Positions 18,189 to 62,334 of a DNA stretch of 64,000 nt are shown here, piece after piece; position 1 is the first letter of the stretch, and every line of letters begins with the position of its first letter. A program made the position numbers and the translations under genes. This DNA is from Nitrospirota bacterium (lineage in GTDB: Bacteria; Nitrospirota; Thermodesulfovibrionia; Thermodesulfovibrionales; JdFR-86). The notes under the pieces are model-generated. The model did no database searches and was not told the DNA's origin. It saw only the letters and a list, made by a program, of their open reading frames with translations. The stretch covers positions 416,001-480,000 of the forward strand of contig CAVRJY010000002.1 of the NCBI GenBank assembly GCA_963721805.1, given 5' to 3'.

Positions 18189-18358
18189 AAAACGCTCCAA
18201 ATCGCTTGATACTGCGTTGGGCATCAAAGACTCGCCCTCTATGTACGCCCAAGTACACCATCGGGCGGTCTTCTCGCCCTGCCTTGTCTGAAGACGATTT
18301 GGGCGCGCTTTCGGGGGGCACGGACGAAGGACGCCCCCCGCGCCCCCAAGGTCAACGG
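18189..18358 (+). repeat. Long-hairpin repeat copy A (hairpin 18189-18311) plus GGTCAACGG boundary motif (18350-18358)
   Basis: Near-identical to 59276-59398; self-complementary ends CCAAATCG/CGATTTGG, apical TGTAC-N6-GTACA. Confidence 0.9.
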
Positions 18359-18477
18359 CTTAGTTTGATACTTATTAGACATGCATAATTCCGCATTAAT
18401 TCTATCCTTTGCATTGAGATGCGCATTTTTGTACAATACTAATGAACATCACTAATTAAACTTGTGAAAGGAAATAT

Positions 18478-18852
18478 ATGGCACAAGCAATGGGTTCGTT
18501 AGCTGCAATAGTAACAAGCATTGGTTCAGGTCTAAGCCAACTTATTAAAGAGTCTGCACAAGTATCTGATTCAAAGGACTTAAGCGTGATAGATAACGCA
18601 GTGAAACGGCAAACGTCGGAGCTTAAAATGGCTCATGCTCAAGCAAAAGTAGCTCAAGAGTTAGCAATTTCTGAAAGAATCAGCAATGCTAATGAGGTTA
18701 TCATTGAAGAATATTATGAGGGCGAGGGAAAAGGTAAAACTGGAGTATCAAGTGACGGCAGTAGTTTTGATATAGGTCTTTCAGTTGAGGGAAAACGTGT
18801 TAGTAAGAGGATTTATAGATTCAAAGGCTTACGCCCAATACCAAAAAAGTAA
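18478..18852 (+). CDS. AT-rich hypothetical protein (accessory cargo gene)
   Basis: 124-aa ORF with AAAGGA RBS in a visibly AT-rich segment beginning right after GGTCAACGG. Confidence 0.7.
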   Translation: MAQAMGSLAAIVTSIGSGLSQLIKESAQVSDSKDLSVIDNAVKRQTSELKMAHAQAKVAQELAISERISNANEVIIEEYYEGEGKGKTGVSSDGSSFDIGLSVEGKRVSKRIYRFKGLRPIPKK

Positions 18853-18880
18853 CAATCATTAATCTGTTAAGTTAAGTTTT

Positions 18881-18944
18881 CTAGTACCAGAACTCTGGAT
18901 ACCGTCGCGTCTTGGAGATGTTATTTGACGATAAGGGCTATGGT
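18881..18944 (-). pseudogene. Remnant duplicate of the 3' end of the HPP-family gene
   Basis: Reverse strand reads TIALIV[+1]NNISKTRRYPEFWY*; intact gene at 19838 ends LIALLVNNIPKTRRYPEFWY*. Confidence 0.85.
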
Positions 18945-18967
18945 AGGCATGCGTGGCAAGCTGGGGC

Positions 18968-19003
18968 AAAAAAAAGGAGCCTGCCCGTCGGGGCAGGCTC
19001 CTT
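18968..19003 (-). terminator. Rho-independent terminator of the beta-barrel gene
   Basis: AAGGAGCCTGCCC-gtcg-GGGCAGGCTCCTT stem followed by a U-tract on the minus strand. Confidence 0.85.
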
Positions 19004-19048
19004 GATATGTTCATTCAGCCGAGACCGGATACCCTCCGCTGGAGGGTC

Positions 19049-19624
19049 CTAGAACGAGAACCCTACGGTCAGGATTCCGGTGTGGAACAGAAGCGGATCG
19101 TTGGTGTGCTTGATAGTCGTAGCCTTCGCGTCGTATACCAGTTTCGTAAATAAGTTCTTCGTTATATCCCACCGGACGCCGACTCCGGCGTTATAAGAAA
19201 AATACGTATCATCAGTATCGGCTTCGTCGCTATGGACGGAGCTGAAATTGATGAAGCCGACGCCGGCGGTCAAGAGCGGGGTGATGTGGCCGTTTAAAAT
19301 ATTGTAATCGACGTTGAGGTCCATCCCAGTGAGGTTTACGTAGTCTTTATAACCCAGCACCCTGAGTTCCTTCTGGGACCAATTGACGTTTGCGTTGATG
19401 TTGAAGTTGTTCGTTATGTTGTAGCCATACCCCACCGCAACCGCTGCGGCAGGGTCGAATTTGATGTCCACATCCGAGTGTCTCGGCTCGGTCATGGCGT
19501 TGCTTGCGTACTCTGCGGAGACAAAGATCTCGTTGAGTCCCTGTCTGCTCCAGTCATCGGCGCTGCACGGCACGGATACTGCGAGAATAACCAGCGACAC
19601 CAGCAACAGCAATGCCTTCTTCAT
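19049..19624 (-). CDS. Outer-membrane beta-barrel protein (OMP_b-brl/OmpA-like TM domain)
   Basis: Signal peptide, alternating beta-strand pattern (FSYNAGVGVRW), C-terminal Phe (VGFSF); AAGGAGG RBS. Confidence 0.85.
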   Translation of the reverse strand: MKKALLLLVSLVILAVSVPCSADDWSRQGLNEIFVSAEYASNAMTEPRHSDVDIKFDPAAAVAVGYGYNITNNFNINANVNWSQKELRVLGYKDYVNLTGMDLNVDYNILNGHITPLLTAGVGFINFSSVHSDEADTDDTYFSYNAGVGVRWDITKNLFTKLVYDAKATTIKHTNDPLLFHTGILTVGFSF

Positions 19625-19725
19625 AGCCCCGTCCTCCTTAAATCTCTTTAGGCCTGCATGCAGCGCCTGTTTAACCGTGGCCCGAAAAGGGCCTTCGTTC
19701 CGATGCGTCCGCCCATATTGAATAA

Positions 19726-19754
19726 TATCTATACCAGTTTGCGATGGATGTCAA
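19726..19754 (-). promoter_or_regulatory. Sigma-70 promoter candidate for the beta-barrel gene
   Basis: Minus strand TTGACA-N17-TAGATA. Confidence 0.5.
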
Positions 19755-19837
19755 TACGAAACAGCCGGATCCGGGAAATGAATAACCTGATTGGAGGCGA
19801 TGCGAGACCGCGAACTGGCGCTTACCGGCGCTTTCCG

Positions 19838-20380
19838 TCAGTACCAGAACTCGGGATAACGTCTAGTCTTGGGGATGTTGTTTACGAGCAGTGCGATGAG
19901 CAGCAGTATCAATGCGCCGCCCCCGACCGGGAAGAGGGCGTACATGAATCCGAGGTTGTGGATCTTATCGCCGCCGATGACCGCGATCAAGGCGGTAGCG
20001 CCGCCGGGCGGGTGGAGCGTCCGTGTGGCGTGCATCAGGGCTATCGCTGTCGCTACTGCAACCGCCGCAGCGAGCCACAGCTCCGAGCCCAACGCCATCT
20101 GCGCGCCCACTCCGACGAGGGCCGAGAGCACGTGTCCGCCGACGAGGTTGCGGGGCTGCGCCAGGGGGCTCTTGATCGCGCCGTATATCAGCACCGCCGA
20201 TGCCCCGAACGAGCCAACGATCATCAACAGGTCGATCTTCTCAAACACGTTATAGTTCGCGTATGAGATGAGCCCTATGCCAAGGAACGAGCCGACCCAT
20301 GACCACGCGATCTCGGTGATACTCACGCGGGGCGGGCTGACCGTGGTGCCCCTCATCTTGCCGAGGTATGCGCCGAGCAT
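19838..20380 (-). CDS. HPP family membrane protein
   Basis: GSFGASAVL, SPLAQPRNLVGGH, LHPPGGATAL motifs. Confidence 0.93.
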   Translation of the reverse strand: MLGAYLGKMRGTTVSPPRVSITEIAWSWVGSFLGIGLISYANYNVFEKIDLLMIVGSFGASAVLIYGAIKSPLAQPRNLVGGHVLSALVGVGAQMALGSELWLAAAVAVATAIALMHATRTLHPPGGATALIAVIGGDKIHNLGFMYALFPVGGGALILLLIALLVNNIPKTRRYPEFWY

Positions 20381-47269: not shown

Positions 47270-47345
47270 CCGATGGCGTACTTTGACGTACATAGAGGCC
47301 GAGTCTTTGAAGCCCAGCGCAGTATCGAACGATTTGGCGCGTTTT
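47270..47345 (-). repeat. Long-hairpin repeat copy B (5' half only)
   Basis: Minus strand AAAACGCGCCAAATCGTTCGATACTGCGCTGGGCTTCAAAGACTCGGCCTCTATGTACGTCAAAGTACGCCATCGG, then similarity stops. Confidence 0.88.
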
Positions 47346-58075: not shown

Positions 58076-59272
58076 ATGAAAAACGAAAATAAATGGGGGC
58101 CGTCGACGACCGCCATCCACGGCACCGGAAAAACCGCCAAGGCCTACCATGCGGTGTCCACTCCGATTGTACAGACATCGAACTACTACTTCGACAAGGC
58201 CGACGAGGTCGAGGACTTCATGCGCGCAAAGGGGCAGGGCAAGGTCATCCGCGAGCACGAGTACGCCCGCTACGGAAACCCGACCCAGCAGATATGCGAG
58301 GCCAAGCTCGCGGCAATCGAGGGGGCCGAGCGCGCTGTCCTCTATTCCTCCGGCATGAGCGCGGTGATACTCGGCATCATGACCCTGATGCAGCCCGGCA
58401 AGCACATCATCTTCACGAACGACTGCTACCGCCAGACGCGCGACTTCGCCAACAATCTGCTCTCGAAGTTCGGGATCGAGATATCGCTCGTCGACCCGAC
58501 GGCCGAGGCCATCGCTGCCGCGATCAAGCCCAACACAAACATCATATTCACCGAGTCCCCGACCAACCCGTACCTGCGCATCCTCGACATCCCGGCCATC
58601 GTGAAGATCGCAAAGGAGCGCGGCATCATCACGATGATAGACGCCACGCTCGGCACGTCTTACAACATTAAGCCCATCGAGCTGGGCGTGGACGTGGTCA
58701 TCCACTCGGCGACCAAATACCTCGGCGGCCACAACGACCTCATGGCCGGCGTCTGCCTCGGCAGCAACGAGATGATGACCGCGTTTTACAAGATGCAGCG
58801 CATGGTCGGCTCTACGCCCGGCCCGCTTACATGCTTCCTGCTCGAGCGCGGCTTGAAAACCTTCGGCATGCGCATGGAGCACCACAACCGCGCAGGCCTC
58901 GCGGTGGCCCAGATGCTTGAGGCCCACCCGAAGATCGAGAAGGTCTGGTATCCGGGCCTCGCCTCGCACCCCGACCATGCGATCTACAAAGAGCAGATGA
59001 AGGGCGGCGGCAGCGTGATAAGCTTCCTCGTCAAGGGCGGGGATAAGGAGACGCGCCAGTTCATCGACGCGCTGGAGCTTTACCTGATCACCCCGAGCCT
59101 GGGCGGCAGCGAGAGCCTGGTCACGCAGATGTGGGCTATGTCGTTTTACGATTATCCGGCGTCGTTCCGTCAGGAGATCGGGATGGTGGACAATCTCGTG
59201 CGTCTGGCTCTCGGGCTGGAGGACATCGACGACCTTATCGCTGACCTTAAACAAGCCCTCGACAAGATTTAG
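58076..59272 (+). CDS. Cystathionine gamma-synthase family PLP enzyme (plant-like)
   Basis: YARYGNPT, ESPTNP, HSATKYLGGHND, SLGGSESL, RLALGLED. Confidence 0.88.
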   Translation: MKNENKWGPSTTAIHGTGKTAKAYHAVSTPIVQTSNYYFDKADEVEDFMRAKGQGKVIREHEYARYGNPTQQICEAKLAAIEGAERAVLYSSGMSAVILGIMTLMQPGKHIIFTNDCYRQTRDFANNLLSKFGIEISLVDPTAEAIAAAIKPNTNIIFTESPTNPYLRILDIPAIVKIAKERGIITMIDATLGTSYNIKPIELGVDVVIHSATKYLGGHNDLMAGVCLGSNEMMTAFYKMQRMVGSTPGPLTCFLLERGLKTFGMRMEHHNRAGLAVAQMLEAHPKIEKVWYPGLASHPDHAIYKEQMKGGGSVISFLVKGGDKETRQFIDALELYLITPSLGGSESLVTQMWAMSFYDYPASFRQEIGMVDNLVRLALGLEDIDDLIADLKQALDKI

Positions 59273-59275
59273 GGG

Positions 59276-59445
59276 AAAGCGCTCCAAATCGCTTGATACT
59301 GCGTTGGGCTGCGAAGACTCGGCCTCTATGTACGTCACAGTACACCATCGGCCGGTCTTCTTGCCCTGCCTTGTCTGAAGACGATTTGGGCGCGCTTTGC
59401 GAAGTGCGCGGCCCAGCCGCTGCCTCCGCGCCTCGCGGTCAACGG
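59276..59445 (+). repeat. Long-hairpin repeat copy C (hairpin 59276-59398) plus CGCGGTCAACGG (59434-59445)
   Basis: AAAGCGC/GCGCTTT, CCAAATCG/CGATTTGG, GAAGAC/GTCTTC, CGGCC/GGCCG, TGTAC/GTACA nested arms; starts 3 nt after a stop codon. Confidence 0.92.
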
Positions 59446-59495
59446 CATTGAGTAAAGTTACATTATTCATAAAATGAGTAAGGAGAGAAAATAGT

Positions 59496-60668
59496 TTGCC
59501 AGAAGGTTTTATTATAATGCAGATTGGCGACGCAGCTCTTGACCGAGTCTGCGAGCAAGCCATTGTTCCAGCCATGAAAACATGCGGCTTAGAGCCAAAG
59601 CGAGTTGACAAACATAACTCAGGCGGCTTATTGAAAAGTGAAATTATAGGGTTTATTGAACGGTCTGAGATTATTATTGCAGATCTGACTAATGAACGAC
59701 CAAATTGCTACTTAGAAGTTGGTTATGCCATGGGAATTGATAAATTTAGAAACCTTATTCTTACTGTACGAGAAGACCATAATCCAGAGAGTCCAAATCA
59801 CATTAAAGGGAAAAAGGTTCATTTTGATTTAAGTGGATATGATATTTTGTTCTGGTCGCCAGATCGGCTCGACGAATTTAAAGAAGAACTTGCAAAGCGC
59901 ATCCAGAAACGTCAGGCTATTATATCGCCGATAAGCGAGAAAGAGATCAGAACTCCATGGGATGAGGTTTGGATTGAAACCCATAGAAAAATAGCTTGGG
60001 AAGGGCTAAAATCAACTGGGAAGAAAGGCTTTTTGGAAATCAGGTTTGCCCTTGATCATCCGAAACCAAATAAGTCTCAGCATGAACTTTTGAAGGCTGC
60101 ACAAGAGGCTCCAATAAGTACCTTCGGCTGGCCTATAGGAGTCTATCTGTCAACGGATGATTTTAGGCCGAAGCCAAAAGCTGATGGTATCGTAGCCGAA
60201 ATATCTGTTGCAAATGAAAGAAGGGTGACATTTGATTACTGGTCGTTACGTAAAACCGGAGATTTATATTTGCTAAAAACAATCTTTGAGGATGATCAAG
60301 AGCCAGATAAAATCTATTTTAATACCAGAATCATACGTGTGACAGAGGCCATTCTTTATTGTGCAAGGTTATATAATCTGTTAGGCATCGATCCAACGGT
60401 GCATGTTAATATTGCAATTCGGCATGGCGGACTAAAAGGGCGAGTATTAACAGCAATAGGTGGCAGAAGGGTGTTTGATTGGGGCAAGTGTTCTGAAGAT
60501 GAGGCTGAATTTGAAGTGCATTCCTCAATATCCGGTTTAGAGTCAAATCTTGTTGATTTAGTCAAGCAAATTACTTCACCCCTATTTGTGTTATTCGATT
60601 TTACAGAATTTAATGATTCTATCTATCAAGACATAGTCGATAAATTTGTTGCCGGAAGGGTCACTTAA
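59496..60668 (+). CDS. AT-rich protein with N-terminal nucleoside 2-deoxyribosyltransferase-like domain
   Basis: IIADLTNERPNCYLEVGYAMG and HFDL motifs; AT-rich codon usage unlike neighbours. Confidence 0.8.
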   Translation: MPEGFIIMQIGDAALDRVCEQAIVPAMKTCGLEPKRVDKHNSGGLLKSEIIGFIERSEIIIADLTNERPNCYLEVGYAMGIDKFRNLILTVREDHNPESPNHIKGKKVHFDLSGYDILFWSPDRLDEFKEELAKRIQKRQAIISPISEKEIRTPWDEVWIETHRKIAWEGLKSTGKKGFLEIRFALDHPKPNKSQHELLKAAQEAPISTFGWPIGVYLSTDDFRPKPKADGIVAEISVANERRVTFDYWSLRKTGDLYLLKTIFEDDQEPDKIYFNTRIIRVTEAILYCARLYNLLGIDPTVHVNIAIRHGGLKGRVLTAIGGRRVFDWGKCSEDEAEFEVHSSISGLESNLVDLVKQITSPLFVLFDFTEFNDSIYQDIVDKFVAGRVT

Positions 60669-60697
60669 GGCGTGCAATGATTCAAAATCATAATATT

Positions 60698-60856
60698 CCG
60701 TTGACCGCGCGCACGATCCCACATAAGCAAACTTAAAGCGCGAGAAATCGTGTCAGACAAGGAACGGCGAGGAAAACGTCCGATGGTGTACTGTGATGTA
60801 CATAGAGGACGGATTTCCGCAGCCGTGACGCAGTATCACGCGATTTGGCGCGACTT
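60698..60856 (-). repeat. Long-hairpin repeat copy D (hairpin 60735-60856) plus CGCGGTCAACGG (60698-60709, minus strand)
   Basis: Diverged copy retaining GATACTGCG, CCTCTATGTAC, GTACACCATCGG, CCTTGTCTGA; starts 2 nt after the cytochrome stop codon. Confidence 0.88.
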
Positions 60857-60858
60857 AG

Positions 60859-62334
60859 CTATTGCTTCCCCTTAAGTAACCGATATATCCTGATCTCGTT
60901 GCGCATCTTTTGCAGGTTACGGGTCAGATCCCACCACCCCTGCTTGAATGCCACAAAGTCCGGCGCGCCGGTCATGGCCGAGCCGTACCGCATCGTGTTT
61001 GCGTAGAACAGCCACTGCGTAACCCAGTCGATCTCGATCTCCTCGTTAAAGGGGTTGCTGGGATCGGCGAGTTTTTCGTCCCATGCGGTTTTTAATAGCT
61101 TCTCGGCCTGTAACGTCATGTCATTTGTCTCGCGAATCGTGCTGTCGAGCTTCGCGAAGTGGCGTTCGGTCCAGTCCGTCGCGTGGCAGCCCTTGCAGAC
61201 ATACTCCATCACCTGTTTGCGCCGATCCTGCTCTTTTTCGTCGATCAGATACGAGGTCGCGGGCTCGCCGTCGAATGTGGAAGGCAGAGGCTGTCCGTCG
61301 CGGTTTCGGATGTTATTGGTATTGCCGCTTATTGGCTGGGGGACGGAGTAGGGCAGCCCGAAGAGCCGCACCCATAGCCGCGAGCCGAAGTCGTGCGAAC
61401 GGTTCACGAGCAGGCTTCCGTCGGGCTTGACGAGCAGCGCCATATGGCAGGCCGCGCACGTGGGGGCCTTGAAGTCCTCACCCACGACCCACGGCACGTT
61501 CGTCCAGTTGACCTTGTCCTCCTGCGCCATGATGATGTTGCCGTGCTTGCTCTCCTCGTAAACGTCATACGCCGGGACGTCCGGCAGCAGGTGGCACTGC
61601 GAGCATGTGAAGGGCTTCCTCGCGACCTCTATCGAGAACGCATGTCGCGTGTGGCATGCCGTACACGTCCCGCGCGAGCCGTCCGGGTTGATGCGCCCGA
61701 CGCCCTGATTCGGCCAGTTGGCTACGTCCGGGACCTCGATCTCGCCAAGCCGGGTCATAACCGTTTTCTTCCCGTTGACCACGAGCTCCGTGCCGTGGCA
61801 GCCGAAGCACGCGTCCTGCTTGCCGTACGCGGACGGAGCGACCTCACTGATCTCGATGCCGTTTACGACCTTGGACGAGAGGATCGTGTTATAGAGCATG
61901 TGGTAAACGGGGTTGTTCTCGATGTTGCCGCGCGCGTTGGACATCTTGCTTACGTCGAACTCGGCCTGTTCGGTCGGGTGGCAGGTCGCGCAGTCCTTGG
62001 GCGAGACCACCAGGTTGATCTTAAACCCGAAGTGGTCGAAGGCGTCCTTGTGGTCAGCGGTGTTCAGGCCGTGGCATTCGTAGCAGCCCACGACCACGCC
62101 CGATAGCTCCGCCGGTAATGTCTCGGCCGAGATGCGGCGCTTAAGGCCGGGCACGTTCATCGCGGTAGCTGGCGTCACGGTTGAGTGGCGGCTGTCCTGC
62201 CAGTCGCCTACTATGCCCGGGGTATAGCTCTTGTGGCAGCCCATGCAGGCCTTGGATGTGCTGCTCAGCGGGGCGTCGGCATATGCAGAAACGAACGAAA
62301 ACATCACGATGAATACCGCCGCGATCACCCTCAT
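60859..62334 (-). CDS. Octaheme c-type cytochrome, hydroxylamine oxidoreductase-like family
   Basis: Signal peptide; 8 CxxCH; GVGRINPDGSRGTCTACHTRH, ESKHG, APTCAACH motifs. Confidence 0.9.
   Translation of the reverse strand: MRVIAAVFIVMFSFVSAYADAPLSSTSKACMGCHKSYTPGIVGDWQDSRHSTVTPATAMNVPGLKRRISAETLPAELSGVVVGCYECHGLNTADHKDAFDHFGFKINLVVSPKDCATCHPTEQAEFDVSKMSNARGNIENNPVYHMLYNTILSSKVVNGIEISEVAPSAYGKQDACFGCHGTELVVNGKKTVMTRLGEIEVPDVANWPNQGVGRINPDGSRGTCTACHTRHAFSIEVARKPFTCSQCHLLPDVPAYDVYEESKHGNIIMAQEDKVNWTNVPWVVGEDFKAPTCAACHMALLVKPDGSLLVNRSHDFGSRLWVRLFGLPYSVPQPISGNTNNIRNRDGQPLPSTFDGEPATSYLIDEKEQDRRKQVMEYVCKGCHATDWTERHFAKLDSTIRETNDMTLQAEKLLKTAWDEKLADPSNPFNEEIEIDWVTQWLFYANTMRYGSAMTGAPDFVAFKQGWWDLTRNLQKMRNEIRIYRLLKGKQ

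Follow-up and report, generated by a model that had tools for sequence, protein, structure and literature searches.

Most bacterial genomes contain scattered small islets with genes for defence and toxin-antitoxin systems, and how these arrive without an integrase of their own is largely unexplained. The window analysed here, a stretch of 64,000 nucleotides (nt) from the Nitrospirota bacterium assembly GCA_963721805.1 (contig CAVRJY010000002.1, positions 416,001 to 480,000), raises this question in a compact form: at positions 59276 to 60856, one AT-rich gene, referred to below as the cargo, lies between two inverted copies of a long hairpin, named units C and D. What has placed this gene between two hairpins? 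Both hairpins belong to a repeat unit that, across the whole genome, meets foreign DNA at its tail end, and there can be no reasonable doubt that unit tails and foreign DNA are associated. As to what the architecture means, the chances appear evenly balanced that the locus is one of about 56 sites at which host-resident copies of the repeat stand tail to tail around foreign genes, with the tail acting as the docking point. A single genome offers about 64 instances of one junction, filled and empty, carrying a sharp mark made of a hairpin and a 12-mer.

The repeat unit and its tail

The genome (2.78 Mb in 9 contigs) contains 233 matches to an nhmmer profile of the hairpin, 188 of them full length, which corresponds to one per 12 kb. 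The repeat unit spans about 180 nt and is composed of a 123-nt hairpin, a variable spacer, a fixed 3' tail with the sequence GGTCAACGGCWT and a short AT-rich end. Two types of spacer were recognized, one consisting of a GC-rich mini-hairpin and the other reading AAGTTT...ATCGTGCGAGC. The 9-mer GGTCAACGG of the tail is exact in 116 of the 188 full-length copies and present with at most one mismatch in 158 of them, mostly 27-52 nt 3' of the hairpin, and 122 of the 152 exact 9-mers found genome-wide occupy the tail position of a unit. In a logo of 157 junctions, GGTCAACGGCWT is near invariant over 12 nt and is followed by about 8 weak AT-rich positions, conservation ending by approximately +20 nt from the first G of the tail. 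The 12-bp boundary motif that the original prediction had proposed is therefore real and located at the switch in GC (guanine plus cytosine) content, but it does not constitute a separate signal, being the 3' tail of the ~180-nt unit. A function of the tail as an uptake signal was considered and rejected: about 30 of the 152 copies lie outside units, near our own rough chance estimate of about 21. In two places (tail sides of C4:310898-311018 and C1:387219-387254) a tandem duplication of the tail is seen, its period being about 21 nt (GGTCAACGGCATGATT.GA..GGTCAACGGC).

The hairpin starts with AAAGCGC and is closed at its base by AAAGCGC/GCGCTTT. Its fold is kept across 132 copies, with 97% of the cells paired and two-sided changes in 12 of the 21 pairs, as compared with 31-55% of cells paired and 4-7 pairs with two-sided changes in controls in which the partners had been slid. 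No intrinsic-terminator T run was detected on either side of the hairpin. Full-text searches of the literature did not retrieve any description of the repeat or of its architecture, and the publications containing a 10-mer of the tail were, among the matches listed, unrelated by title; likewise, Rfam gave no gathering-score match in the window and no match at E<=1 in 59200-60900. Units are unevenly distributed along the genome, being dense on contig C5 (97 kb) and in the first half of contig C1 and absent from a stretch of about 80 kb on contig C2 (C2:288-366 kb) that holds several integrase genes.

Polarity and pairing of the units

Throughout the genome, the tail end of the unit coincides with a switch to low-GC DNA, as had been anticipated for the sequence beyond the 12-bp motif. 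Over 400 nt, GC averages 0.600 on the 5' side, as against a mean of 0.497 beyond the tail (n=187, Wilcoxon p 1.8e-27), and windows with GC <0.50 account for 2.1% of the 5' sides and 52.4% of the tail sides, compared with 7% genome-wide, in a tail-side dip that persists for more than 2 kb. Codon usage follows the same polarity, since it is foreign in none of the 5'-side genes, in 25% of the tail-side genes and in 3% of the genes genome-wide. Of 187 units, 125 turn their 5' end towards the stop codon of a core gene, at a median distance of 15 nt, and the other 62 towards a start codon.

The relative orientation of neighbouring units is equally biased. Among the 98 pairs separated by at most 3 kb, 54 point inward and only 6 outward, with 24 and 14 in the two tandem arrangements (binomial p 2e-10); the idea of hairpin-bounded low-GC cargo as a recurrent module is upheld by this excess of inward pairs over chance. 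When the distance is extended to 8 kb, 64 inward pairs are obtained. Eight of them are empty, with 68-253 nt between hairpins and 12-70 nt between tails, and 56 are filled, with 586-6135 nt between hairpins (median 1664) and an interior of GC <0.52 in 45 of the 56. All 31 outward pairs within the same distance enclose DNA of GC >=0.597. Seen from the side of the foreign DNA, 62 of the 106 low-GC segments of at least 500 nt have a correctly oriented unit at their boundary, wrongly oriented boundary units are only 4, and the segments free of units are mostly situated in two large integrase-bearing islands or inside filled pairs. Altogether, inward pairs account for 116 of the 188 units; of the 72 that are unpaired, about 40 border a one-sided islet.

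The position of the units at gene ends admits a different reading, according to which they would be elements similar to REP (repetitive extragenic palindromic) or ERIC (enterobacterial repetitive intergenic consensus) sequences, with a structural or RNA role and an orientation dictated by the core gene, while foreign DNA would simply accumulate in permissive gaps. The 125 units placed closely after a stop codon are what such bystanders would look like, and so are the approximately 30 unpaired units without an islet, the compensating changes that keep the fold, and the occurrence of the hairpin without foreign neighbours in related genomes (see below). Nonetheless, most units adjoin low-GC DNA (the 116 in inward pairs and about 40 of the unpaired ones), whereas low-GC windows make up 7% of the genome; the 62 units facing start codons show the same polarity as the rest; a repeated and untargeted landing in the 12-70 nt that separate the tails of an empty pair is hard to envisage; and the hairpin has no terminator-type T run beside it. 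On these grounds, the bystander status of the units seems quite unlikely.

The two members of a pair are not especially related to each other. Hairpins that form a pair resemble each other no more closely than randomly combined ones do (0.796 vs 0.783, n=47, p 0.26), and the spacer classes show neither left/right asymmetry nor any departure from random pairing. Both results fit free reassortment, and they would be expected if the units were ordinary dispersed repeats that provide portable homology only, in such a way that RecA-type recombination within the units moves islets after DNA uptake with no participation of a dedicated enzyme. Inverted flanks would then persist since recombination between them inverts the cargo instead of deleting it. 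Each side of an islet carries about 180 nt of 80-95% identity on which such exchange could operate, and no recombinase is linked to the units. What portable homology leaves unexplained is the first arrival of foreign DNA between two units, the presence of islets in inward and never in outward pairs (54 vs 6), a near-invariant 12-mer beside a varying hairpin, and the existence of relatives devoid of both tails and islets. As a complete account it is unlikely, a little less so than the bystander reading.

The locus in the window

The features of the locus, in order along the window, are the following:

58076..59272, plus strand: core gene of the cystathionine gamma-synthase/MetC type, 398 aa (open reading frame, core codon usage; stop codon at 59270-59272).
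59276..59398, plus strand: long hairpin of unit C, 123 nt (fold, membership of the repeat family; covariance-model score 140.1 bits).
59399..59436, plus strand: variable spacer of unit C, GC-rich, of the class beginning GCGAAGTGCGCGG (spacer classes).
59437..59456, plus strand: fixed tail of unit C, GGTCAACGGCAT (59437-59448), and weakly conserved AT-rich last bases (157-unit tail logo).
59448..59475, plus strand: promoter-like site TTGAGT-16-TAAAAT, its -35 part overlapping the end of unit C (consensus scan, weak).
About 59480-59487, plus strand: GGAG-type ribosome site after the promoter-like site (sequence).
59496..60668, plus strand: cargo gene, with an N-terminal domain resembling TIR and nucleoside deoxyribosyltransferases (open reading frame, models).
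60687..60706, minus strand: tail of unit D, GGTCAACGGAAT (60695-60706), and AT-rich last bases (sequence, tail logo).
60707..60734, minus strand: spacer of unit D, second class, AAGTTT...ATCGTGCGCGC (spacer classes).
60735..60856, minus strand: long hairpin of unit D, from a diverged subfamily (fold, profile; covariance-model score 131.2 bits).
60859..62334, minus strand: multihaem cytochrome c core gene, 491 aa (open reading frame; stop codon at 60859-60861).

That hairpins C (59276-59398, plus strand) and D (60735-60856, minus strand) face each other, as had been described from the letters alone, was confirmed by three means. A repeat search found two pairs of inverted arms, 59307-59378/60753-60824 (72 nt, 82%) and 59280-59304/60828-60852 (25 nt, 92%); an alignment of C with the reverse complement of D reached a mean column identity of 78% over 224 columns; and each of them, as single-stranded DNA, folds into a single long hairpin, C with -32.4 kcal/mol (z -4.85, 0 of 200 shuffles as good) and D with -23.0 kcal/mol (z -3.25, 1 of 200 shuffles as good). 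The stem of D displays compensating changes relative to that of C, and the two units carry one spacer of each class. The inverted motif was also found where it had been placed: the 12-mer CGCGGTCAACGG occupies 59434-59445 and its exact reverse complement 60698-60709, on the inner sides of the hairpins, and GC steps down from 0.545 (59300-59499) to 0.365 (59600-59799) at the C side and up from 0.345 (60500-60699) to 0.51 (60700-60899) at the D side, falling to 0.35-0.45 between the two 12-mers. At up to one mismatch, CGCGGTCAACGG has 5 matches in the window, against 0.73 expected, and a 29-nt core of the hairpin has 4, against 0 expected. A single open reading frame, 59496..60668, fills the gap between C and D, and the flanking core genes converge on it, as had been claimed, the stop codon of the MetC-type gene lying 3 nt before C and that of the cytochrome gene 2 nt beyond D.

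Both core genes have other neighbours in relatives, so the site is also a synteny break. Orthologues of the MetC-type gene, at 70-83% identity, follow thrC in 68 metagenome loci, all of which lack the hairpin, the cargo and the cytochrome gene and are too distant to serve as a presence/absence comparison. The unit is missing even from the closest of these loci, in which MetC is 83% identical, and an ordinary terminator-like hairpin follows metC in several of the 17 loci inspected. The orthologues of the cytochrome gene, at 57-59% identity in three genomes of the same family, have a flavoprotein gene as their next gene. A rearrangement mediated by the units at this break was considered and discarded, given that the flavoprotein orthologue is located elsewhere in the genome with no unit within 17 kb. 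In one sequencing run, 0.05 of the words were present, and its contigs consisted of nine short pieces that included no joint and left the cargo uncovered.

The promoter-like site at 59448-59475 comes from a weak scan that returned 6 sites where 3.0 would be expected from shuffles. Since the unit ends in a consensus (TTGATT) similar to a -35 box, units may supply one half of an outward promoter. Two more members of the family are present in the window:

18189..18370, plus strand: unit A, with its hairpin at 18189-18311 and its tail GGTCAACGGC at 18350-18359.
47270..47345, minus strand: unit B, a variant copy that matches the first 76 hairpin positions only.

On the tail side of unit A there is a low-GC islet of about 1.4 kb (unit and islet together at window positions 18189-19840). 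This islet is one-sided and reaches a core gene directly, without a second unit.

Cargo genes

The cargo gene of the locus encodes 390 aa from a TTG codon, or 383 aa from the ATG at 59517, and has a GC content of about 0.39. Its product matches the PADLOC TIR effector model (2.6e-11), the Pfam TIR and deoxyribosyltransferase models remain below their cut-offs, and the C-terminal domain matches no named family. An AlphaFold model of the protein, with a mean confidence (pLDDT) of 87.6, retrieved TIR domains and nucleoside deoxyribosyltransferase (NDT)/DNPH1 folds in Foldseek, together with a loose match over the full length to SPARTA TIR-APAZ (template-modelling score 0.26); a sequence search of the PDB gave nothing below E 0.4. 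Homologues number 1252 at E<=0.001, the best 120 of which are 54-71% identical and all without a name, and among 400 other genomes drawn from the phylum 2 have the gene. It is a foreign and widely scattered defence-like gene of the TIR type.

One of its homologues is informative about the relation between cargo and hairpins. In genome G068 (L163:1483-2683), a 56% identical protein is encoded by a lone low-GC gene between purH and purD, separated from each neighbour by spacers of about 18 nt and accompanied by no repeats, and the cargo gene therefore travels without hairpins. The same gene in relatives that lack the hairpins had been named as an observation that would speak against the proposed module; the G068 copy comes close to it, although G068 is not a close relative.

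A census of the cargo in the 56 filled pairs, covering the 143 open reading frames of at least 70 aa, shows what else is held between tails. Toxin-antitoxin pairs are recurrent (MazE/MazF, ParE/Phd, three of HepT/MNT, two of Gp49/HTH, DUF2442/DUF4160 and DUF4258/DUF2283), and they are accompanied by restriction genes (MmeI-type, methylase-Mrr), a KAP NTPase, Abi_C, HEPN proteins, HNH and PLD nucleases, many family-less proteins and insertion sequences. No integrase is encoded among the 143. Setting the insertion sequences aside, there is no duplicated cargo, and identity between the most similar of its proteins is 50-75%.

The hairpin in related genomes

A covariance model built from 87 copies was searched in 40 related genomes and detected the hairpin in 6 of them, belonging to four to five other genera. 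A BLAST-type search of the same 40 gave 0 matches, so that the family is found by the covariance model only. The 43 units of these relatives differ from those studied here in three respects. None of them has the tail. Exact complementarity of at least 8 nt between the 5' and 3' ends is found in 27 of the 43 (8-20 nt), as opposed to 11 of 187 here, which identifies the relatives' units as complete hairpins of about 165-180 nt with paired termini. Lastly, none of 40 tail-side windows in the relatives falls below GC 0.5. Tail and foreign DNA thus appear together, and in this lineage only. A pattern scan of all species genomes returned 1 match, in a Vibrio, which is about the chance level, and the same type of scan returned 0 in viral contigs.

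The last bases of the unit (ATTGATTAGAG) resemble, by eye, the 3' terminal repeat of the hairpin in the related genome G003 (ATTTTTAGAGG). Taken together, the comparison with relatives suggests that an old hairpin resembling a MITE (miniature inverted-repeat transposable element) became one-ended in this lineage, gained a spacer and the 12-mer, and is now found with foreign DNA. The units have a host-like GC content, lie tight against core genes and have their hairpin in related genera, features that assign them to the host; they are part of the chromosome and descend from an older hairpin element common to these genera. The sister genera, with hairpins that lack both the mark and the islets, provide a contrast that makes the question testable.

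Target duplications, enzymes and the origin of filled pairs

There is no evidence that this or any other module moves. At the outer flanks of the 56 inward pairs the longest shared word averages 4.98 nt, compared with 5.08 nt in shuffled pairings, and a duplication at the flanks, 16 bp long, was seen in only 1 of 79 single units. In the 37 pairs with both tails, the junctions of the cargo have no extra inverted repeat. No enzyme gene was found in the cargo or beside a copy of the unit, hence any enzyme would act in trans. The expectation of a HUH (Y1/RAYT) or tyrosine recombinase gene beside a copy was not borne out. No transposase gene stands directly between two tails other than those of inserted IS30-, IS481- and IS200-type elements; these elements have ends of their own, and no insertion sequence with unit ends was found in the genome. 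The claim that hairpin and GGTCAACGG form an in-trans recombination site for cargo consequently survives in part: the two do make up one unit, with no linked enzyme, but signs of mobility were not seen.

These observations bear directly on whether the units might be the long terminal inverted repeats of a non-autonomous composite transposon, with a transposase acting in trans to mobilize the whole block of hairpin, cargo and hairpin. The location of passenger genes between inverted repeats, the resemblance of empty pairs to a MITE and the complete MITE-like form of the hairpin in relatives would all be in keeping with it. A composite transposon, however, would hardly leave outer flanks without a target duplication or a cargo that is unique apart from insertion sequences. 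Moreover, the units have the GC content and lineage of the host and the cargo is foreign, the end that looks like a transposon terminus faces inward rather than outward, no insertion sequence shares the ends of the unit, and the cargo gene of the locus exists elsewhere without repeats. This origin is thus very improbable. With both the bystander and the composite-transposon models failing, the evidence argues that the units came first and that foreign DNA was inserted or exchanged at the tail.

Under the docking-point reading, the tail-to-tail dimers, which also exist empty, would be the docking points. An enzyme whose gene lies elsewhere would read the fixed 12-mer beside the hairpin and insert or swap foreign DNA at the tail. 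It is the fixed nature of the 12-mer that argues for a protein reading it. The tail end may be the counterpart of the terminal inverted repeat that the relatives' complete element has, and because of that correspondence two abutting tails resemble joined transposon ends. The location of the 12-mer at the former terminus of the element, combined with the empty tail-to-tail form, suggests a joined-ends reaction of a transposase on foreign DNA; by analogy with IS30 and IS911, a joined-ends junction attacking a circle of foreign DNA would leave exactly the topology observed. After capture, the flanking units could act as portable homology for the exchange of islets. A more ambitious version of this scheme is a chromosome-wide system of gene capture without a linked recombinase, in which an old hairpin transposon would have given rise to about 60 fixed inward docking sites whose GGTCAACGGCWT ends would capture, between core genes, foreign DNA that consists mostly of toxin-antitoxin and anti-phage genes. 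This is possible, though we regard it as doubtful; if true, it would represent a capture system similar to integrons but dispersed, paired and built from domesticated transposon ends.

Several points weigh against docking at the tail. Low-GC DNA is missing from the tail side of approximately 30 of the 72 unpaired units, and 11 of the 56 filled pairs have an interior of GC >=0.52; in some of the latter the genes look ordinary (an ABC-3 permease with Fur, for example), and three contain little besides an insertion sequence. Insertion at the tail is deduced from the architecture of one genome only, and the homology between the tail end and the terminal repeat of the relatives was assessed visually on short stretches. 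In the 37 both-tailed pairs, no short direct repeat was detected at the cargo junctions, in an analysis that a duplication of 2-4 bp would escape, and the filled junctions lack the second inverted arm that the product of a tyrosine recombinase would have. As regards the enzyme itself, none was found: the 7 tyrosine and 1 serine recombinase genes of the genome are all more than 3 kb from any unit, and the only Y1 transposase belongs to an IS200-type element that has its own hairpins. Even if no docking activity exists, the case still illustrates the strong influence that a dispersed repeat can have on the places in which foreign DNA persists.

Comparison with known systems

By analogy, the family may work like a cross between REP repeats, with the bacterial interspersed mosaic elements (BIMEs) that they form, and a cassette system of the integron or pdif type. 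As far as the parts of the sources drawn on here describe them, REP/BIME and REPIN-RAYT repeats are abundant intergenic palindromes placed tight at gene ends and built as mosaics, they serve as targets of insertion sequences and keep their fold across copies, all of which they share with the present units; REPs are 20-40 nt long, compared with the 123-nt hairpin found here (PMC3116915, PMC3333891). The high copy number and the extragenic location near gene ends typical of REPs are also seen here (233 matches, with 125 of 187 units after a stop codon at the median of 15 nt). The 5' GTAG/CGTC tag of REPs was not seen by eye at the foot of either the hairpin or the spacer mini-hairpin, and in place of a single-copy RAYT (REP-associated tyrosine transposase) gene flanked by repeats there is an IS200-type element in six copies. 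Unlike REPs, the present units have a fixed 12-mer tail 27-52 nt from the hairpin and systematically bracket foreign genes.

In integrons, the R'' (RYYYAAC) and R' (GTTRRRY) sites of attC pair as the base of one hairpin of 57-141 nt. Long imperfect hairpins of similar size, small toxin-antitoxin or uncharacterised cargo and an enzyme acting in trans are common to attC and the units, and integron clusters without an integrase offer a comparable case. The tail, read as GGTCAAC / GTTGACC, even matches RYYYAAC / GTTRRRY at 6 of 7 positions. However, GGTCAAC lies 27-52 nt outside the hairpin and has no partner on the 5' side with which to pair; the sites form inverted pairs scattered over the chromosome and not direct arrays; and one side of a unit is always a core gene, low-GC cargo almost never preceding the unit, as only 2.1% of the 5'-side windows fall below 0.5 GC. 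No integron integrase, an enzyme (IntI) marked by an extra domain, was identified, the 7 tyrosine recombinase genes not having been typed as IntI or otherwise.

The pdif modules of Acinetobacter plasmids resemble the filled pairs in that genes lie between inverted short sites with no recombinase in the module. A pdif site, though, comprises 28 bp, with two inverted arms around a 6-bp centre, and the 157-junction logo contains one 12-nt arm only. The present site is not an 11-6-11 Xer site, and it belongs to a chromosomal system linked to a long hairpin.

Mobile insertion cassettes and MITE composites, in the portions of the literature considered, share with the 56 filled pairs the presence of passengers between inverted repeats without a transposase (PMC5444012, PMC4133298). 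Neither their target duplication nor ends common to an autonomous insertion sequence were found here, and in contrast to MITE composites the repeat is host-like and the cargo foreign. The original prediction, which saw no match to the signatures of these systems, holds in this respect: the defining features tested for attC, pdif and REP/RAYT, and two of three for MITE composites, are absent. Flexible genomic islets, slots between conserved genes that vary from strain to strain, are recognized by cargo that changes or is missing in close strains at constant flanks; the nearest loci available for such a comparison were the metagenome loci in which MetC is 83% identical and the unit is lacking.

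For IS30- and IS911-type elements, joined ends are the reactive form. Element ends likewise face each other in the empty pairs, and fusion of joined ends with other DNA would set that DNA between inward-facing ends. Compared with IS30/IS911, there is no transposase tied to the ends, the short duplication expected at the cargo ends is not seen, and the tails of empty pairs are spaced by 12-70 nt and not by 2-3 nt.

Insertion sequences and other modules associated with the islets

The IS200-type element (PF01797) is 602 bp long and has small end hairpins of its own in direct orientation. Its six near-identical copies are located at C1:42301, 366622, 1252034 and 1452182 and at C4:138543 and 146508, and four of the six are inside hairpin-bracketed islets. 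An IS30-family element of about 1.1 kb, encoding a 339-aa transposase, sits within the long hairpin of three different copies (C1:649225-650444, C1:759538-760757 and C1:387219-388438), at an identical position in each, which indicates that the element targets the hairpin. An IS481-like element of 1200 bp, with a 344-aa rve transposase and target duplications of 7-8 bp, is present at 10 sites, always at the edge of an array of GGAACYRGTTCC palindromes, for instance at C2:405829-407028 (L076) and C1:963112-964311 (L061); this array is another non-coding module inside the islets. Finally, a non-coding module of about 350 nt, composed of GTTCGGATG iterons and a CGCGCGC palindrome, occurs at 33 sites (e.g., C1:479916-480265, L049), directly after the tail in 26 of the 33 copies and on one side only in the pairs inspected.

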